This document shows positions 466 through 52,025 of a DNA stretch of 64,000 nt, one piece after another. Position numbers and translations under genes: made by a program. Source of the stretch: an archaeon (GTDB lineage: Archaea > Iainarchaeota > Iainarchaeia > Iainarchaeales > Iainarchaeaceae); the NCBI GenBank assembly GCA_035289625.1, contig DATDWP010000028.1:9840-73839 (forward strand). Direction: 5' to 3'. Below the pieces are notes generated by a model. That model ran no database searches and had not been told where the DNA came from. It saw nothing but the letters and a program-made list of their open reading frames with translations. How positions within the stretch are numbered: the first letter of the stretch is position 1; every line of letters starts with the position of its first letter.

Positions 466-965
466 ATTCAAAAGGCCAGGCAACAATTGAATTTTTACTG
501 GTAATGATTGTTGCGCTCACCTACATTATTGTTGTAGTGCAGCCAAATGCCGACATTGCAGGATTTGCAGCAGAGGATGTTGCAAACATTTCAAAATTCA
601 AATTATCAACCGAAAAGCTTGCAAATGCAATACAATATGTTTCGATTTCCGGGCAGGGAACAAAAGAGAGCATGGTGTTCTTTTTACCAATCGGTTCAAC
701 CCTCTCCTGCACATCCCCTGCAAACCAACTCACAATAAATTATCCATTAAGATCAAAAGGCAGCACCGGGTGCTTTAATGATGATGACGCTGCAGGCAAT
801 GATCCTAACAATCTCAAGAACTGTAAAAAAATAATAAACCCCGGTGTTGATTTTAGCTGCACCCCTTCAAGCGGGGTTGGAAGCGCGCAATCAACAAGTT
901 CACGAACATATACAACATATGTGCAAAAAGATAGTGCCGGCACAATCAGCGTGCATTTCACGTGA
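441..965 (+). CDS. archaeal type IV pilin-like protein (class III signal peptide)
   Basis: N-terminus SKG|QATIEFLLVMIVAL resembles the prepilin/archaellin class III signal peptide (K/R-G followed by Q and a hydrophobic helix). Confidence 0.55.
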   Translation: MERSFLSLNSKGQATIEFLLVMIVALTYIIVVVQPNADIAGFAAEDVANISKFKLSTEKLANAIQYVSISGQGTKESMVFFLPIGSTLSCTSPANQLTINYPLRSKGSTGCFNDDDAAGNDPNNLKNCKKIINPGVDFSCTPSSGVGSAQSTSSRTYTTYVQKDSAGTISVHFT

Positions 966-971
966 TATTTT

Positions 972-1337
972 ATGAAAGGGCAGGCTAGCATTGAAATAAT
1001 ATTCATAGTTTCTGTTGCAATAGTTCTCGCATTTTTTGTACTCTCAAAATTTGTATCGGTGCAAGATGATGTATTTGTTTCAGCAGCAATTCGCCAAGAA
1101 CTAATCGGGCAGATTGAAAAACTTGATGCAAAATATGAACTTCAAGAAATCCACAGCAGTATGTGCAGAGCAAACCCACGCGATATAATCAAAGTAGTGA
1201 TTCTAATCCAGCCAACACCTAGCGGCCCTGACCAAAGTACACTAACTAGGACAACTACTGCTGCTGTGCAAAAAGTAACAGGACCTTCAAAGGATGTTAC
1301 AGTAGCATACAATAACCTCGCAGCACTCGCCTGCTAG
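972..1337 (+). CDS. archaeal type IV pilin-like protein (class III signal peptide)
   Basis: N-terminus MKG|QASIEIIFIVSVAIVLAF. Confidence 0.55.
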   Translation: MKGQASIEIIFIVSVAIVLAFFVLSKFVSVQDDVFVSAAIRQELIGQIEKLDAKYELQEIHSSMCRANPRDIIKVVILIQPTPSGPDQSTLTRTTTAAVQKVTGPSKDVTVAYNNLAALAC

Positions 1338-1732: not shown

Positions 1733-2900
1733 ACAAATAACCTTTGCAATACTTGGAATAATTGCAGGTACAATAACCGGGCTAATTCCGGGAATTCACT
1801 CAAACACTATTGCAATTGCTTCTTTGCACCTTCCATTGCAAAACCCACAAGGGCTTGCAATATTTATTGTCACAATGAGCATTACAAATTCAATTGTGGA
1901 TTCGATCCCCTCAATATTTTTAGGAGCCCCTTCAGAAGAGAGCTCAATAAATCTTCTCCCCGGGCATCGCATGCTGCTTGCAGGCAGAGGACTTGAAGCA
2001 CTCTCACTTTGCACATTTAGTTCACTTTGCACATCACTTTTTTCGCTCCTTCTTTTGCCGATCTTTTTTATAATGGCAACAAATTACACTGAAGAGCTAA
2101 ATTCAGTAATACCTAGCCTAATTGCCCTGACCACTATTCTAATGCTATTGCATGAGAAAAATAAAATAGCGGCTCTCATTGTAATTGCACTCTCAGCTTC
2201 ACTTGGAGTAGTTGCGCTCGGTGCCGGAATTTCCGATCCGCTCTTTGCGCTAATTAGCGGTTTTTTTGGATTTAGCAGCCTTGCAGAATCAATATTTTCA
2301 AAGACAAAAATCCCAATCCAAAAAAAGCAGAGGGCAAGAAAAGAAAAATTGCAAAGCGGTTTTTTGCCGGCTGCAATATCAGGTGCGCTTGCACTATTTC
2401 CCGGAATCGGCCCGGCACAGGCAGCAACAATTGCTGGGGCAGTTTTTTCAAAGCGGTTAAGCGGCAAGGGATATCTTATGCTAACATCAGGAGTAAATAG
2501 CGCAAATTTACTGGTTGGCATTCTAATGCTCTTTGCCCTTGAAAAAAGCAGAACCGGAATGGCTGCATCTATTGCACAAATCATTGAACTTGACAGCACA
2601 ACACTTTTCATTCTCCTTGCCGCTGCAATAAGTGCTGTTGGATTTGCCTGCGCAATAGTTGAAATTCTTGCAAAACCATCAATTGCACTTTTACAAAAAA
2701 TAAATTACCCGCTAGCTAGCGCGGGAATAGCAATATTTCTAATATGCCTTGTTACCCTCTTTTGCGGCCCTCTTGGGCTGCTTGCTAGCATTAGCGCGTG
2801 CGCTATAGGGATTTTTGGGATAAATTCAAAAGTGCAGCGCAGCCAGTGTATGGCATTTTTGCTCCTGCCCACATTTTTAATATATCTTGGAATTGCATAG
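1725..2900 (+). CDS. TctA/DUF112-family polytopic membrane protein
   Basis: Multi-pass hydrophobic protein with MIEQITFAILGIIAGTITGLIPGIHSNT start typical of DUF112/TctA. Confidence 0.45.
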   Translation: MIEQITFAILGIIAGTITGLIPGIHSNTIAIASLHLPLQNPQGLAIFIVTMSITNSIVDSIPSIFLGAPSEESSINLLPGHRMLLAGRGLEALSLCTFSSLCTSLFSLLLLPIFFIMATNYTEELNSVIPSLIALTTILMLLHEKNKIAALIVIALSASLGVVALGAGISDPLFALISGFFGFSSLAESIFSKTKIPIQKKQRARKEKLQSGFLPAAISGALALFPGIGPAQAATIAGAVFSKRLSGKGYLMLTSGVNSANLLVGILMLFALEKSRTGMAASIAQIIELDSTTLFILLAAAISAVGFACAIVEILAKPSIALLQKINYPLASAGIAIFLICLVTLFCGPLGLLASISACAIGIFGINSKVQRSQCMAFLLLPTFLIYLGIA

Positions 2901-3021
2901 ATGCAAACCAAAAAAACAAGCCCTACAACGCCCATAAATGATTTCAAGCCCATAAATTTAGAGGCCGGACAAGTCAGACTAGGCCTAGTAGGTTTGAATG
3001 CCCCATAACTTTTAAATCCGA

Positions 3022-18963: not shown

Positions 18964-19958
18964 AACGTAATCTTATAATTGCAGATTATTCGTCTCTTCA
19001 ATCGCCAGTCACAAAAGATATTTTGAAAATTTTAACAAATGTAAATATTTCGCAATACCCTGACCCACTCTATTCAAACCTAAAAAAATGCATTGCAAAA
19101 TATTGTGGAATAAGCTCAAATAATATAGCGGTAGGAAATGGCGCTGATGACTTGATACAGCTAATTACATCCGTTTTTGGAAAGCGAATTGTAATTCCAA
19201 CTCCGTGTTTCATTACATATTCACTTTCAGCCAAAACCCTTAGAAAAAAAATAAAATTCATAAACTGTATAAAAAAAGGCCGATTTAAGCTTCCAAAAAT
19301 TCGATTAAAAAAATATGATATTCTCTGGATCGCAAATCCAAACAATCCACTCGGAGAATATCTACCTATAGAGGAAATTTTATCCAAAATTTCAGGAAAT
19401 GGAATAACAATAATTGATGAAGCGTACATTGAATTTACCGGAAAGCAAAAAGTGAGCCCACATCTTTTGAAAAAATCGGGTTTGATAATTTTAAGAAGCT
19501 TTTCAAAAGGCTGGCCATTAGCCGGTCTTCGAGTAGGTTATGTTATATCAAACCCAGCAGTAATTCGACAACTCGAAAATCAGAGACTTTTATTTCCAGT
19601 TAATGCAGTGGCAAATACCTTGGTTCCGATTTTATTGGAAAAAAATAAATTATATCAAATAGAAAGGGAAATAGCAAGAAAAACTTCTCTTGATTTTGTG
19701 AAAATTTTTCAAAATAGCGGTCTTCGAACCAGTAACAGTGTAACAAACTTTTTTTGTGTACAATTCCAAAATACAATTCAAGCGGCTAGATTTTATAGAG
19801 AAATTTCAAAACAAGGCGTTCGTATATTACCCCCTAATGACAAGGAATTTGTAGGATTGCCTTCTAACTACCTTAGAATTTGCATCCCTAAAATAAAAAA
19901 TGTAAGCCGCATGAAAGCAGCTATTAAAAAAACACTTCAAACCTTGAAACATAGGTAA
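18960..19958 (+). CDS. class I/II PLP-dependent aminotransferase (HisC/CobD-like)
   Basis: NPNNPLGEY and SFSKGWPLAGLRVGY (PLP-binding Lys). Confidence 0.7.
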   Translation: MKRNLIIADYSSLQSPVTKDILKILTNVNISQYPDPLYSNLKKCIAKYCGISSNNIAVGNGADDLIQLITSVFGKRIVIPTPCFITYSLSAKTLRKKIKFINCIKKGRFKLPKIRLKKYDILWIANPNNPLGEYLPIEEILSKISGNGITIIDEAYIEFTGKQKVSPHLLKKSGLIILRSFSKGWPLAGLRVGYVISNPAVIRQLENQRLLFPVNAVANTLVPILLEKNKLYQIEREIARKTSLDFVKIFQNSGLRTSNSVTNFFCVQFQNTIQAARFYREISKQGVRILPPNDKEFVGLPSNYLRICIPKIKNVSRMKAAIKKTLQTLKHR

Positions 19959-20014: not shown

Positions 20015-20090
20015 TGGCGGGCCCGGAGGGAGTCGAACCCTCAACCTTTCGCTTCGAAGGCGACTGCGCTATCCATTGCGCCACGAGCCC
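20015..20090 (-). tRNA. tRNA-Arg(TCG), CCA encoded
   Basis: Cloverleaf folded by hand from reverse complement GGGCTCGTGGCGCAATGGATAGCGCAGTCGCCTTCGAAGCGAAAGGTTGAGGGTTCGACTCCCTCCGGGCCCGCCA: 7-bp acceptor, D-arm, anticodon loop CTTCGAA, T-arm GAGGG/TTCGACT/CCCTC. Confidence 0.8.
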
Positions 20091-20487
20091 TTGGGTAGAA
20101 AGTATTGGGGTCAAGTTCATTATTTAATATCTCTTTTCTTTTGGCATAGGAAATATTTGTAGGGCAAAATCCAAATTTTTGCCAGATCTGATATCTAGAA
20201 ATTTGAGAATTGTTCATAAAACCTATATTCCGAATCCAGCTATTAAGGCTCGAATAACCTCTCAAATAGATGAGATACTTTATATGAGAATATGAATATG
20301 TTGGCTTTGCAACTAATTGAGTGCAATTAAACCCGGTTTTTTGTAGAATAGAAAATACACCATCTGAAAGTTGCTTAGAACAAACACCTAGCTTAATTAC
20401 AGGATAGGAGTGTTTTTTCTTATCCCCATGAACCTTTTTAAAGCTTCCCCACAAGAAAATAGTAGTAAACTTGGAAAGGCAAATTTT

Positions 20488-20640
20488 ATGAAAACATGCA
20501 TTACAACAAACAAGGTCGTAATAAATGACTTTATAGAATTCCACTGCCCGAGCTGCAATGAGCGAATAGTACGAAGCCTTGAAGCGCGCGCAAAGAGCTT
20601 ATCATATAAGTGCCCAACATGCAGCTTTAGCGGCCCATGA
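20488..20640 (+). CDS. Zn-ribbon RNA-binding protein (COG2888-like)
   Basis: HCPSCNERIV...YKCPTCSFSGP; C-terminal CPxCGFxGP-like signature; conserved position upstream of aEF-1beta. Confidence 0.6.
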   Translation: MKTCITTNKVVINDFIEFHCPSCNERIVRSLEARAKSLSYKCPTCSFSGP

Positions 20641-21558: not shown

Positions 21559-23610
21559 ATGATCAAAAGCATTTATTTGGAAAACTGGAAAACCCATTTG
21601 AAGAGCCAATTTGAATTTGCCAAAGGCACGAATGTAATAGTTGGAATATCCGGGGCTGGAAAAACATCAATAACCGATGCAATATCCTACGCGCTATACG
21701 GAACATTCCCCTCACTTGCAGCCCGCAAAGTGAGCCTTGAAGAAACCATAATGTCAAAACCACTAAAACAACAAACAACAACAATAAGGCTAGAATTTGA
21801 TTATTCCAATAAGAGCTACCAAATTGAGAGAACTTCTAGAAGAAACGGCATGAGCGAAGCCACCTTGCGGGAAGGCACAAAAATAATTGCAGGCCCTAAA
21901 ACAACAGATGTCACAAAAAAAGTAACTGAAATACTTGAAGTGAATTATGATCTTTTCAGCAGGGCAATATATTCTGAGCAAAACCAAATAGATTTTTTCC
22001 TAAAACTCTCAGCTTCGCAAAGAAAAGAAAAAATCGATGAACTCTTAGGGCTTGATAGGTATGAGCGCGTGCGAACAAATGCAGTGACGCTTCTAAACCG
22101 CATGAAAAAAATCAACGATGACAAAAAGGCATTTTTGCAAGAGCAGCGCAAGAAAATAAACCCTGTGCAAATTAGTGAATATGAATGGAAATTGAAGCAG
22201 AAAAGAGAGGAAATAGCCCAAAAAGAAAAAGAAATGGAAAATGTACAAAAACTCTTTTTACAAAAAGAACTTGCCGCAAAAGAAATTGAAAAAAAAGAAA
22301 AAGAACACAAATCAATACGCGAACTTGAAATATCAAAAAAATCGAAACTTGAATCACTGCAAGCCCAAATAGAGAATGCGCAAAAAAAATCCCAAGGGCA
22401 TGATCTAACAAGCACGCAAGAGGTTTTACTTAAAATGGCAACGGAGCTTGAAAAACTACATCTTGCAAAAAAATCCCTCGAAGACCTTGCAAAGGCAGCA
22501 CAAAGAGAGGAAAATGGAATAGGTGAAAAACTCGCAGTGCAAAAAAACCTGCTTTTATCAAATGCAAAAAGAATGAAAGAAGCAAAAGACCTTGAAGGAA
22601 AATGCCCAATATGCTGCAGGCCGCTTAGCGAACATGACAAAAAAAAACTGGATGAGGAAATAAAAGGGGAAGAGGAGAGCATTTCCAGGCAAAGTATAAT
22701 ACTGCAAAAAGAACTAGAGCAACAGAGCAAAAAATCCAAAGAGATTATTTCCCAAATAGAAAAGAACACGCGGCAATGCGAAGAGCTACGGGAAAAAATA
22801 CAAACTCTAACACGGCTTTTAGAAATAGCACAGGAGATAAAAGATAAAAAATTCCAAAAAGAAAAACTCGAAGAGGAACTTGCAAAAATACACTCCTCAT
22901 TACTTGAAATGAAATTTGATGAAAAAGATGCAATAAAATCTAGGGAGCAATACTACGAGGCGCGAGAGAAGCACTCCAAAATAAAAATTGAAATAAACGC
23001 AACAAAAGAACTTATAGCAGAACTTGAAACTGCAGAGCGAAGAATAAAGGAAATGCAAAGCCAAATTGAAGAATTGGAAGCGCAAACAAAAATATCTGAA
23101 AAGAATATGGAAAAACTCTCAATGTTCACCTCCGCCCTAAAATCAACACAAGCAGAACTTCGCAATGTAATGATAGATACAATAAACCAGGCAATGGAGC
23201 AGCTGTGGCCCAAAATATACCCATACCAAGATATTCTATGCGTAAAACTTACAGTGGATGAGGGGAGCTATGAAATAATGGTAAGGCAGGTTAGCGGAGA
23301 GTGGATTAGAGTTGAAGGCATACTCTCGGGCGGGGAGAGGAGCAGCGCCGCGCTTACACTGCGAATTGCAATTTCACTAGTGCTCACGCAAAACCTTGGA
23401 TGGATAATACTAGATGAGCCCACACACAACCTTGATGTGAATTCGGTAAAGGAACTATCTGAAATGATGAGAAATCATTTGCCACAATTTATTGAACAAA
23501 TATTTATCATAACCCACGAAAAAGAACTAGAGTATGCAGCATCGGGAAAACTCTACACGCTGGAGCGCGAAAAAGAAAGAGACGGAGTTACGAAAATATC
23601 AATTGAGTAG
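21559..23610 (+). CDS. rad50: DNA double-strand break repair ATPase Rad50
   Basis: N-terminal MIKSIYLENWKTH...GISGAGKTSITDAISYALYG Walker A; central coiled coil with zinc hook GKCPICCRPL; C-terminal LSGGERS signature and ILDEPTHNLD Walker B. Confidence 0.85.
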   Translation: MIKSIYLENWKTHLKSQFEFAKGTNVIVGISGAGKTSITDAISYALYGTFPSLAARKVSLEETIMSKPLKQQTTTIRLEFDYSNKSYQIERTSRRNGMSEATLREGTKIIAGPKTTDVTKKVTEILEVNYDLFSRAIYSEQNQIDFFLKLSASQRKEKIDELLGLDRYERVRTNAVTLLNRMKKINDDKKAFLQEQRKKINPVQISEYEWKLKQKREEIAQKEKEMENVQKLFLQKELAAKEIEKKEKEHKSIRELEISKKSKLESLQAQIENAQKKSQGHDLTSTQEVLLKMATELEKLHLAKKSLEDLAKAAQREENGIGEKLAVQKNLLLSNAKRMKEAKDLEGKCPICCRPLSEHDKKKLDEEIKGEEESISRQSIILQKELEQQSKKSKEIISQIEKNTRQCEELREKIQTLTRLLEIAQEIKDKKFQKEKLEEELAKIHSSLLEMKFDEKDAIKSREQYYEAREKHSKIKIEINATKELIAELETAERRIKEMQSQIEELEAQTKISEKNMEKLSMFTSALKSTQAELRNVMIDTINQAMEQLWPKIYPYQDILCVKLTVDEGSYEIMVRQVSGEWIRVEGILSGGERSSAALTLRIAISLVLTQNLGWIILDEPTHNLDVNSVKELSEMMRNHLPQFIEQIFIITHEKELEYAASGKLYTLEREKERDGVTKISIE

Positions 23611-48864: not shown

Positions 48865-48963
48865 GCGGGCGTAGTATAGCCTGGTTAGTACTCGGCCTTG
48901 CCAAGAATTTTCCAAAAAATTTGCAACTAGGCCGTGGGTCGGGTTCAAATCCCGACGCCCGCA
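48865..48963 (+). tRNA. tRNA-Gly(GCC) with ~25-nt canonical intron
   Basis: GCGGGCG acceptor, D-arm GTAT/AGCCTGGTTA/GTAC, anticodon stem CGGCC with loop TTGCCA|intron|A and 3' strand GGCCG, T-arm TCGGG/TTCAAAT/CCCGA, acceptor CGCCCGC. Confidence 0.7.
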
Positions 48964-48965
48964 AT

Positions 48966-49472
48966 TTAATTTCCTGCAACAATTTGCTGCAGCTGCTCAA
49001 AAGTTAGCCTTGCAACCCCTTGCTCTGAATTTATTTCACAATACCCCAATTCTTTAATGCAATCAATCCCCACAGGGTGCGAGCCATCAAGAGCGCTAAC
49101 TGAGCATGCGTATACTTTTCTGCTCTCATTCTGCTGCGCAGAACACGAACAACCCCTAACAGCCCAAGCATTGCTCCCCGCACTCTTTTTTGCCTCTGCA
49201 AGGCAATTTTTTTCAACAACAACACTATCGATCATATTCCATAACTCATCGCTGCGACTTGGACCTGGATCAGTTACAGGCGAACTCTCACTTGCCTGCG
49301 GGCTTTGCAAATCGTCAGAAACCGTTGAATTTTGCCCAGATATTGATGGGTGTGGCATTTGAAAAGTGAGGGCGAACACAACTACACCTGCAATTAAAAT
49401 TAGGGCAACAAGCGAACCGGATTGAATTATTTGTTTATTCTCTTCCAAACAATCTCCCCCGCCTTTTTGCAC
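48966..49472 (-). CDS. secreted Cys-containing hypothetical protein
   Basis: TM/signal then Ser/Pro-rich region. Confidence 0.35.
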   Translation of the reverse strand: MQKGGGDCLEENKQIIQSGSLVALILIAGVVVFALTFQMPHPSISGQNSTVSDDLQSPQASESSPVTDPGPSRSDELWNMIDSVVVEKNCLAEAKKSAGSNAWAVRGCSCSAQQNESRKVYACSVSALDGSHPVGIDCIKELGYCEINSEQGVARLTFEQLQQIVAGN

Positions 49473-50053
49473 AGCTCTTCTTCACTTTTCGAAGAATCAA
49501 GAATAATTATATTTTCAGCCGGGAAAGTTTTTTTAATTTGCAAAAAGGAAGCGCGCACTTTTTCCAAAAAATCCTTTTTTTCAAATGCCTCAAGTTGCCT
49601 TCTCTTCTTGTCCCCATTAATTCTTTGCAGCGCAACATCAACTGGAATATCCAAAATAAAAACAATATCAGGAACTGGCATCCCCACATGCAAGGCGCTG
49701 ATTTTTCCAGCAGGTATTTCTTGCAACCCTTGATAGACAAAAGTGCTGTACTTGTATCGGTCACAGAGAATTATTTTTCCCGCGCGCATTGCTGGTTCTA
49801 GCACCTTTTGCACATGCTCTTTTCTATCAGCAACATATAGGTCTAAAAATTGGCGCGCATTCACCTGCGGATCAACACTTAGAGCGAGGAGCTCTCGCAC
49901 CTTCTTGCCATAAAACCCGGAAGTAGGTTCAGCTGTGTGAACTATCGTTTCCTTCTCAAGCCCTTTTTTTAAAAGGAATTTCTCAAGACATGCAATGAGC
50001 GTCCCTTTTCCAGAACCGTCAATTCCCTCAAAGACGATAAATTGACCTTTCAT
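49427..50053 (-). CDS. tmk: thymidylate kinase
   Basis: MKGQFIVFEGIDGSGKGT P-loop; DRY-like motif; 208 aa. Confidence 0.85.
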   Translation of the reverse strand: MKGQFIVFEGIDGSGKGTLIACLEKFLLKKGLEKETIVHTAEPTSGFYGKKVRELLALSVDPQVNARQFLDLYVADRKEHVQKVLEPAMRAGKIILCDRYKYSTFVYQGLQEIPAGKISALHVGMPVPDIVFILDIPVDVALQRINGDKKRRQLEAFEKKDFLEKVRASFLQIKKTFPAENIIILDSSKSEEELCKKAGEIVWKRINK

Positions 50054-50241
50054 ACTAGTAGTAATTAGGAGTGATATTTTAACTATTTACTTCGCCGTCA
50101 GGAAAAAGCGTTTATATTTATGACCAACAGCATGTAGTAACCTTTTTTAAGGTAATCAAACCAAACAATCCTAAGCATACCCTGAAATATAAAATATTTC
50201 GGGAAAGCGGAAAAGTGCCACTCCACAAGGAATTTATTAAA

Positions 50242-50394
50242 GCGGCCGTGGTGTAGTGGTTAGCTTTAAAGGGGAACAAAGAGTTAATCCAACTAAGGCC
50301 CATAAAGCACTAGAGCCTTCCATAAACTTTTCCATTTAAAATTTGTGGGGTTCGGGGTCAGCTCTTAGCCGGGGTTCGAATCCCCGCGGCCGCA
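50242..50394 (+). tRNA. tRNA-Gly(TCC) with two introns (D-arm non-canonical ~44 nt and canonical 37/38 ~37 nt)
   Basis: Hand fold: exon1 GCGGCCGTGGTGTAGTGGTTAGC; exon2 ACTAGAGCCTTCCA (anticodon stem AGAGC, loop CTTCCA); exon3 AGCTCTTAGCCGGGGTTCGAATCCCCGCGGCCGCA; D-stem GTGT/GCAC only pairs after removing the first insert. Confidence 0.55.
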
Positions 50395-50962
50395 TTCTAA
50401 TTTTTCAATTAATTAGAAAATAATTCAAAAAAGAATCAGAATTTTAACTTGAAAATTTGGTTAAAAATTTGGGGGATCTCTCCCCCGATTGTTGCATCGT
50501 ATCACCTCCTTTTTGGTAGTTGCAAAATTCAAAAACAGAATTTTATTGCTGCAAAAAAATCACCTCCATTTTTACTGCAAAAAAAATCAATCATTTTCTA
50601 TAAATCCCCCCTACGAGGGGGAACTTTCACATACATCAATTTTCCTCCGACCCAGATCCGAACCTCGCTATCTGCTGGCAAAAGATGGCCAATCACCCTG
50701 TCAACTTTTTGCTTTTCTTTGCTTTTCATGACACATATTCGTGGGCTTTATTAAAAAGGCTCACGACCAGCAATAGCCCCATAACGGCTAATTTTAGCGA
50801 AAAAATGCCCCTATAGCTAAAAAGATGGGAAAATGAGTAAATTTTAAAAGAACTGAAGAGTTTATATAAAAGGTTTACAAATACCTGCCCAACATGACCA
50901 ATTCTGGTCAAAAATTAACAAATATGATAGGTTTTTATATTAGTTGTAAAATTTATAGTATT

Positions 50963-51722: not shown

Positions 51723-52025
51723 ATGAAACACCAAAAAGCCCAGCAAATAGGCCTTGAGAGAATCTACCGCCTCTTTGAACTCGCGCAAGAAGAATTCACA
51801 ACCCACCCCTTGCGCAGCAAACGCTATATCGAACTTGCAATCAAAATCAGCAAAAGGGCAAGGGCAAGAATACCCCCTGAACTCAAAACAAAATACTGTA
51901 AAAAATGCGGCGCGTACCTGCAAAACGGGACGAATGCAAACATCACAAAAATTGGGGCGCTCACAGTGGTGGAGTGCAAAGAGTGCGGGCACATACGGAA
52001 AACTGGAATGAAGGCCGGAAAATGA
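51723..52025 (+). CDS. rnp4: RNase P protein component 4 (Rpp21)
   Basis: Basic helical N-terminus then zinc ribbon CKKCGAY...ECKECGH. Confidence 0.75.
   Translation: MKHQKAQQIGLERIYRLFELAQEEFTTHPLRSKRYIELAIKISKRARARIPPELKTKYCKKCGAYLQNGTNANITKIGALTVVECKECGHIRKTGMKAGK

Follow-up and report, generated by a model that had tools for sequence, protein, structure and literature searches.

The segment 50242-50394 (plus strand) of the 64-kb window, as we call the whole stretch of DNA that was analysed, is a single 153-nt tRNA gene. It is very probably a functional tRNA-Gly(UCC) gene that gives rise to a ~153-nt precursor with two protein-spliced introns of the BHB type, one in the D-loop and the other at the canonical position 37/38 (Table 1). 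The host is, judging by its gene content, a DPANN archaeon close to Ca. Diapherotrites/Iainarchaeota, because the genes around the tRNA encode archaeal proteins (ribosomal protein S19e, eIF-6, Rpr2, a DnaG-type Toprim protein (archaeal DnaG) and the SRP receptor); for the adjacent Tmk (thymidylate kinase), a match of 100% identity bears the label "MAG TPA archaeon", and the next-best homologs, with 54-68% identity, are largely labelled Ca. Diapherotrites. The acceptor stem of the tRNA consists of seven Watson-Crick pairs out of seven (GCGGCCG/CGGCCGC), followed by a discriminator A, and the GC-rich T-arm of 5 bp carries the T-loop TTCGAAT; CCA is not encoded. Both tRNA halves quoted in the original prediction are located in this segment. 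They were said to lie 153 nt apart, but 153 nt is the span of the whole gene, not the gap between the halves.

Table 1. Features of the tRNA-Gly(UCC) locus and of other regions of the window mentioned in the text (↓, predicted cut; linear positions are those of the unspliced gene)
Feature	Position in the window	Strand	Description
Exon 1	50242-50261	+	Acceptor 5' strand, U8-G9, D-stem 5' strand, D-loop to U20a; GCGGCCGTGGTGTAGTGGTT; 3' border set by the BHB register
Intron 1, 44 nt	50262-50305	+	D-loop, between U20a and A21
Intron 1, helix H, 4 bp	50256-50259 with 50300-50303	+	Exonic G15-U16-G-G18 with intronic CCAU (C59-U62), linear positions
Intron 1, 5' bulge	50260-50262	+	UU↓A; linear U19 U20 ↓ A21
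Intron 1, inner helix h', 6 bp	50263-50268 with 50294-50299	+	Linear 22-27 with 53-58
Intron 1, 3' bulge	50304-50306	+	AA↓A; linear A63 A64 ↓ A65; D-stem follows directly
Exon 2	50306-50322	+	A21, D-stem 3' strand GCAC, U26, anticodon stem AGAGC, loop CUUCCA to A37
Intron 2, 37 nt	50323-50359	+	Canonical position 37/38
Exon 3	50360-50394	+	A38, anticodon stem 3' strand GCUCU, variable loop UAGC (4 nt), T-arm, acceptor 3' strand, discriminator A73
Candidate archaeal promoter	50185-50199	+	TATA-like, A/T-rich box AAATATAAAATATTT; lies 43-57 nt before the mature 5' end
Candidate archaeal oligo-T terminator	50401-50405	+	T5 run, 7 nt past the discriminator
Tmk	49427-50053	-	Adjacent gene
tRNA-Gly(GCC)	48865-48963	+	25-nt intron at 37/38, strict hBHBh'
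LAGLIDADG_3 remnant	50089-50253	+	55 codons, directly 5' of tRNA-Gly(UCC)
Rpr2/Rpp21	51723-52025	+	RNase P protein subunit, 1.3 kb 3' of the tRNA
Conserved hairpin and CACCTCC	50449-50520		GC-rich hairpin, then CACCTCC, downstream of the tRNA
tRNA-Arg(TCG)	20015-20090	-	
167-aa ORF	20041-20544	-	Runs into the 5' part of tRNA-Arg(TCG)

When the 44-nt and 37-nt inserts are taken out, the resulting 72-nt RNA is folded by ARAGORN into a perfect tRNA-Gly(tcc) with the D-stem GUGU/GCAC, the anticodon stem AGAGC/GCUCU, the anticodon loop CUUCCAA and a 4-nt variable loop. A variable loop of the same length is present in the tRNA-Gly(GCC) of the window. All 21 cloverleaf pairs of the spliced molecule are intact, as are the invariant bases in the exons (U8, A14, G18-G19, U33 and the T-loop), with no disabling change. 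In archaea, the identity elements for glycine are C35, C36, the pairs G1-C72, C2-G71 and G3-C70, and A73; each of these is found in the gene sequence. GGA is the most common glycine codon in the window, accounting for 45% of the glycine codons in 11 ORFs, 10 of which are supported by Pfam, and this usage implies that a working tRNA-Gly(UCC) is needed. The isotype and anticodon, the two introns of 44 and 37 nt, and the sequences of the D-stem, the anticodon stem and the anticodon loop had all been proposed in the original prediction. The fold of the spliced 72-mer agrees with every one of them, and the isotype and the introns are further borne out by the syntenic orthologs, by covariation, by the alignment of the orthologs and by the BHB-type fold at the D-loop insert.

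A different solution is offered by ARAGORN in the intron mode, which finds the same gene ends and labels the gene tRNA-Leu(taa) with one 62-nt intron. Agreement on the gene ends speaks for this reading, but the fold is poor: the D-stem is mismatched, the anticodon stem has two G.U pairs besides one mismatch, and ~25 nt of variable region are unstructured. It is also at odds with the syntenic orthologs, all 12 of which are tRNA-Gly(UCC), and with G1-C72, C2-G71, G3-C70 and A73, which fit glycine identity. We give a tRNA-Leu(UAA) with a single intron next to no chance.

Default ARAGORN and Rfam at the gathering threshold do not detect the tRNA-Gly(UCC) gene, and with Rfam at E<=10, the unspliced gene yields no tRNA-family match, only fragments of the T-arm that are placed in other families (mascRNA, tmRNA). 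Low-stringency ARAGORN produces 119 calls, most of them spurious; one of these, a "tRNA-Pro" at 19707-19878, was rejected because the sequence is not tRNA-like. When the 64-kb window was searched on both strands for T-arm and acceptor complementarity within 400 nt, there were five matches, four of which are tRNAs (Val, Gly-GCC, Gly-UCC and Arg); the fifth, at 21583-21810 on the minus strand, we take to be spurious. The tRNA-Gly(GCC) gene is likewise missed by default ARAGORN and by Rfam at the gathering threshold. In related genomes, long 37/38 introns (52-66 nt) are present at 854-989 (+) in locus L024, at 534-674 (-) in L037 and in the tRNA-Gly(UCC) genes of L099 and L015, and a tRNA-Glu(CUC) of the relatives with a long 37/38 intron is mislabelled tRNA-Ser(gga) by ARAGORN. 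The isotype calls made by ARAGORN in the intron mode are unreliable in these genomes. Default ARAGORN and Rfam do not see the tRNA that must read the commonest glycine codon of this archaeon; for this and similar DPANN genomes, automated tRNA counts, along with inferences drawn from a "missing" tRNA-Gly(UCC), would therefore be wrong.

For comparison with orthologs, DNA was fetched around homologs of Tmk. The Diapherotrites-like relatives share the gene order Tmk, tRNA-Gly(UCC), ACT-domain gene, Rpr2; the last of these genes encodes Rpr2/Rpp21, a protein subunit of RNase P. A syntenic tRNA-Gly(UCC) lies between the Tmk and ACT-domain genes in 12 distinct relatives. Ten of these orthologs, 71-73 nt long, are intronless (L002, L005, L008, L016, L018, L019, L020, L023, L098 and L100), and the remaining two (L015 and L099) have one intron each, at 37/38, whose hBHBh' motif is perfect. 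None of the 12 has the D-loop insert. When the window gene is aligned with five of the orthologs in MAFFT, it stands apart by just two insertions: the first falls in the D-loop, the second separates A37 from A38. Judged by synteny, both inserts are derived relative to the intronless orthologs.

The spliced 72-mer is 74-90% identical to the 12 orthologs, nine of which have the same anticodon arm. Across the 13 mature sequences, each of the 21 cloverleaf pairs is standard in every sequence (100% of cells). Ten of the 21 pairs show compensatory double changes, a level reached in none of 500 shuffles and not even approached by slid controls. Taken together, the orthologs and the covariation appear to settle both the tRNA-Gly(UCC) isotype and the exon structure, and on this evidence the Leu(UAA) reading is ruled out.

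The unusual length of the gene, taken alone, could point to an assembly artefact or a chimera, but the complete 153 nt recur unchanged in L010, a JGI assembly, and in L011, an ENA scaffold of 293,751 bp. A third assembly, L012, reaches 49 nt into the gene (the complete 5' exon plus 29 nt of intron 1) and differs there by one SNP, while a Logan contig extends over the first 11 nt; the likelihood of an artefact is virtually nil. The SNP, G to A at 50283 (linear 42), is the sole difference between L012 and the window over 237 nt; it maps to the apical part of intron 1 and leaves the BHB core untouched.

The register of the BHB motifs was calibrated on three unambiguous introns of this lineage, those of L015, L099 and the window tRNA-Gly(GCC). 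In this register, positions 32-35 pair with the four bases that precede the last two bases of the intron, and each 3-nt bulge is cut between its second and third bases. The motif of the tRNA-Gly(GCC) intron consists of the helix TTGC/GCAA with the bulges CA↓A and CT↓A. When all pairs of cuts were scanned, the sole combination that yields a tRNA and has a 4-bp central helix in the D-loop was the one with cuts after linear positions 20 and 64, which also ranked first among the registers with the correct product. Cuts at linear 24 and 57 would be flanked by a perfect TTAG/CTAA helix, yet leave 11 surplus bases in the D-loop and are incompatible with a tRNA.

In the predicted fold, intron 1 thus has an archaeal BHB-type motif in the relaxed HBh' form: the 3' bulge faces the unpaired A14, which makes the motif relaxed and HBh'-like. 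The score of this motif is equalled by 9 of 20,000 shuffled introns. When the whole precursor is folded without constraints, the MFE and centroid structures both contain exactly this motif (z-score -2.9), and when the D-arm region is folded alone, it is the MFE structure, with an ensemble P(BHB) of 0.68. According to this model, intron 1 would be excised between U20a and A21 and would belong to the known 20/21 class. The original prediction had put the 44-nt insert after position 23. A 3-nt direct repeat, AGC, borders intron 1, so that cuts after any of the linear positions 20 to 23 give an identical product; the proposed tRNA therefore stands, and it is the cut that is moved by the BHB register.

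Intron 2, in agreement with its original placement after position 37, shares its register with the strict BHB introns found in L015, in L099 and in the window tRNA-Gly(GCC). In the candidate motif, the bases C32-U-U-C35 (50317-50320) would pair with GGGG (50354-50357) through a helix that includes two G.U pairs. Of its two bulges, CA↓U and UC↓A, the one on the 3' side is intact, whereas the inner helix opens with an A.C mismatch that widens the 5' bulge. The strict 37/38 introns of this lineage share with intron 2 the helix H formed by positions 32-35 and the cut after the second base of the bulge; however, they are perfect (for example, CTTC/GAAG with AACC/GGTT), whereas intron 2 has the two G.U pairs and the mismatch at the 5' bulge. 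Other registers of intron 2 were rejected: their helices are worse, or they put U38 where all orthologs have A38. Hence the BHB-motif search that had been suggested as a check finds a well-formed motif at the D-loop insert and, at 37/38, a weak motif in the right register. Both motifs are relaxed, one bulge in each facing an unpaired base, and the intron at the canonical position has the poorer one.

In terms of folding energy, the BHB of intron 2 (~-8.7 kcal/mol) compares unfavourably with a competing hairpin (-13.3 kcal/mol, 4.6 better) in which the first G-run of the intron pairs with the exon; the MFE structure adopts this hairpin, tying up the 5' strand of the anticodon stem, and the ensemble P(BHB) is ~2e-4, versus 0.68 for the D-loop motif. 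These values could be taken to mean that the D-loop insert is the sole normal BHB intron and that removal of the 37/38 insert is inefficient or depends on the mature tRNA body or a cofactor, such that splicing would be ordered or regulated. We regard this scheme as highly improbable: the 37/38 register is exactly that of the strict introns of the relatives, only ~1% of shuffled introns reach a 4-bp helix H in this register, and the energy models omit the tertiary structure of the tRNA and the binding of proteins.

The preferred reading, with two introns that are both removed by proteins, implies the following pathway. A ~153-nt precursor carrying both introns would be transcribed, possibly from the candidate promoter, in which the TATA-like box aligns with TTTTTAAA boxes 5' of the L008 and L100 orthologs, and possibly up to the T5 run that we consider a candidate terminator. 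Within the precursor, the D-loop bases G15-G18 would pair with CCAU of intron 1, producing the central helix, the 3-nt bulges and the 6-bp hairpin, and the loop bases 32-35 would pair with GGGG of intron 2. The archaeal splicing endonuclease EndA would then cleave each bulge between its second and third bases, and a ligase of the RtcB type would join the three exons into the 72-nt tRNA. Because CCA is not encoded in the gene, it would be added post-transcriptionally. By analogy with the systems discussed below, it is reasonable to infer that splicing of this precursor needs an endonuclease of relaxed specificity. With the M. jannaschii EndA as the query (verified against PDB 1a79), neither the window nor any of the fetched loci yielded an EndA homolog. 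The tRNA-Trp intron of Haloferax is an example of an intron that encodes a C/D box sRNA; sequence inspection found neither a C box (RUGAUGA) nor a D box (CUGA) in intron 1 or intron 2.

Alternatively, the gene could be a disrupted pseudogene, derived from an intronless ancestor by one or two inserts that are not spliced, with another copy taking over the decoding. Among the 13 lineages, the D-loop insert is unique to the host, the 37/38 motif is weak, the view of the genome covers 64 kb, and a decaying LAGLIDADG gene adjoins the locus, which implies a history of insertion in this region; all of this is compatible with a pseudogene. However, the 21 cloverleaf pairs and the invariant bases are intact, the positions of the inserts fit BHB registers far beyond chance, the gene is the syntenic copy, of which the relatives have one at this locus, and the codon it would read is the one most used for glycine. 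A pseudogene is therefore improbable.

The combination of a D-loop intron at 20/21 with a 37/38 intron is already known in archaea. Position 20/21 is among the listed non-canonical positions of archaeal tRNA introns, and such introns often accompany a canonical one (PMC4090602). The closest parallel to the tRNA-Gly(UCC) gene described here is the pre-tRNA-Glu(UUC) of Methanopyrus kandleri, which combines a strict 37/38 BHB intron with a relaxed D-loop HBh' intron beside A21 (PMC5829648). Both introns of this precursor are cleaved in vitro, efficiently by the crenarchaeal (alpha-beta)2 EndA, whereas the EndA of A. fulgidus and of M. kandleri itself are poor on the D-loop intron (PMC5829648). 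The two genes share the arrangement of introns and, in all likelihood, the splicing endonuclease pathway, which for tRNA-Gly(UCC) we infer. They differ in isotype and phylum (Glu in Euryarchaeota, Gly in DPANN), in the 37/38 motif, which is strict in M. kandleri and weaker here, and in the nature of the evidence: splicing in M. kandleri was demonstrated by experiment, and the present gene is known from its sequence.

As described in the work cited in PMC4090602 (Marck & Grosjean 2003, Sugahara 2007/2008), tRNA genes of Thermoproteales/Crenarchaeota, Nanoarchaeota and ARMAN similarly contain transplantable BHB sites outside 37/38, including 20/21; a canonical intron is often present as well, and standard tRNA finders overlook these genes. 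In that account, these lineages have many such genes, sometimes with intron families transposed from tRNA to tRNA, whereas we find one in 64 kb. Within the DPANN superphylum to which the host belongs, several lineages, namely, Pacearchaeota, Woesearchaeota, Nanohaloarchaea and Mancarchaeum, possess an alpha4 EndA with an "L3" insert (the L3 loop) and show increased disruption of tRNA genes (PMC5829648). Disruption of tRNA genes together with a broadened EndA is the pattern expected for DPANN, and additional, undetected disrupted tRNA genes are anticipated in these archaea (PMC5829648); the species set of that study left out Diapherotrites/Iainarchaeota. Our literature search found no paper specifically on tRNA introns in Diapherotrites. 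The present gene would add a Diapherotrites-like lineage to the archaea with multi-intron tRNAs that include a D-loop intron, and it predicts that the splicing endonuclease of this lineage accepts relaxed BHB motifs, leaving the current view of archaeal tRNA splicing unchanged.

The D-loop intron looks like a lineage-specific gain, given that no related copies of it were found and that the other intron-bearing tRNAs have single 37/38 introns only. Neither intron has another copy in the window or in ~100 related loci, no similarity was found between the two, and all other intron-bearing tRNAs in the fetched loci carry a single 37/38 intron, with none in the D-arm. A scan of the GTDB representative genomes with the 23-nt 5' exon matched only an unrelated bacterial tRNA-His, so that neither this organism nor close relatives with the exon are included in that set. 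Since no intron homolog was found, the BHB helices are without support from covariation.

The LAGLIDADG_3 remnant located directly 5' of the tRNA shares 67% identity (tblastn E 1e-19) with the C-terminal end of a 298-aa LAGLIDADG_3 protein encoded by a full-length gene at 2007-2903 (-) of L008 (Pfam E 3e-12). Its frame enters the first 12 nt of the tRNA and ends with a TAG stop at tRNA positions 13-15, and the retained part overlaps the likely tRNA promoter. In L100, a LAGLIDADG remnant also lies 5' of the tRNA-Gly and is truncated at another point. Differences are concentrated in third codon positions (11/8/24). Altogether, this looks like a free-standing homing endonuclease gene that decays independently in each lineage. 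Elsewhere in the window, the 167-aa ORF that runs into the tRNA-Arg(TCG) gene shows very weak similarity to the LAGLIDADG C-terminus (E 0.66) and has no Pfam match; it may be a second decayed copy, or the similarity may be due to chance.

The absence of the D-loop intron from 12 relatives, the AGC repeats at its borders and the adjoining, decaying LAGLIDADG gene raise the possibility, doubtful but worth stating, that this intron is a recent lineage-specific gain caught near the event. Should the AGC repeat be an insertion footprint, or should the tRNA gene be a target of the endonuclease, the locus could show how BHB introns enter tRNA genes, and the link between EndA specificity and tRNA gene disruption would reach Diapherotrites.

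The conserved GC-rich hairpin on the downstream side of the tRNA, together with the CACCTCC next to it, recurs at the equivalent position in L098-L100. CACCTCC is the complement of the ribosome-binding site GGAGGTG, which suggests that a small conserved gene or element lies on the minus strand.
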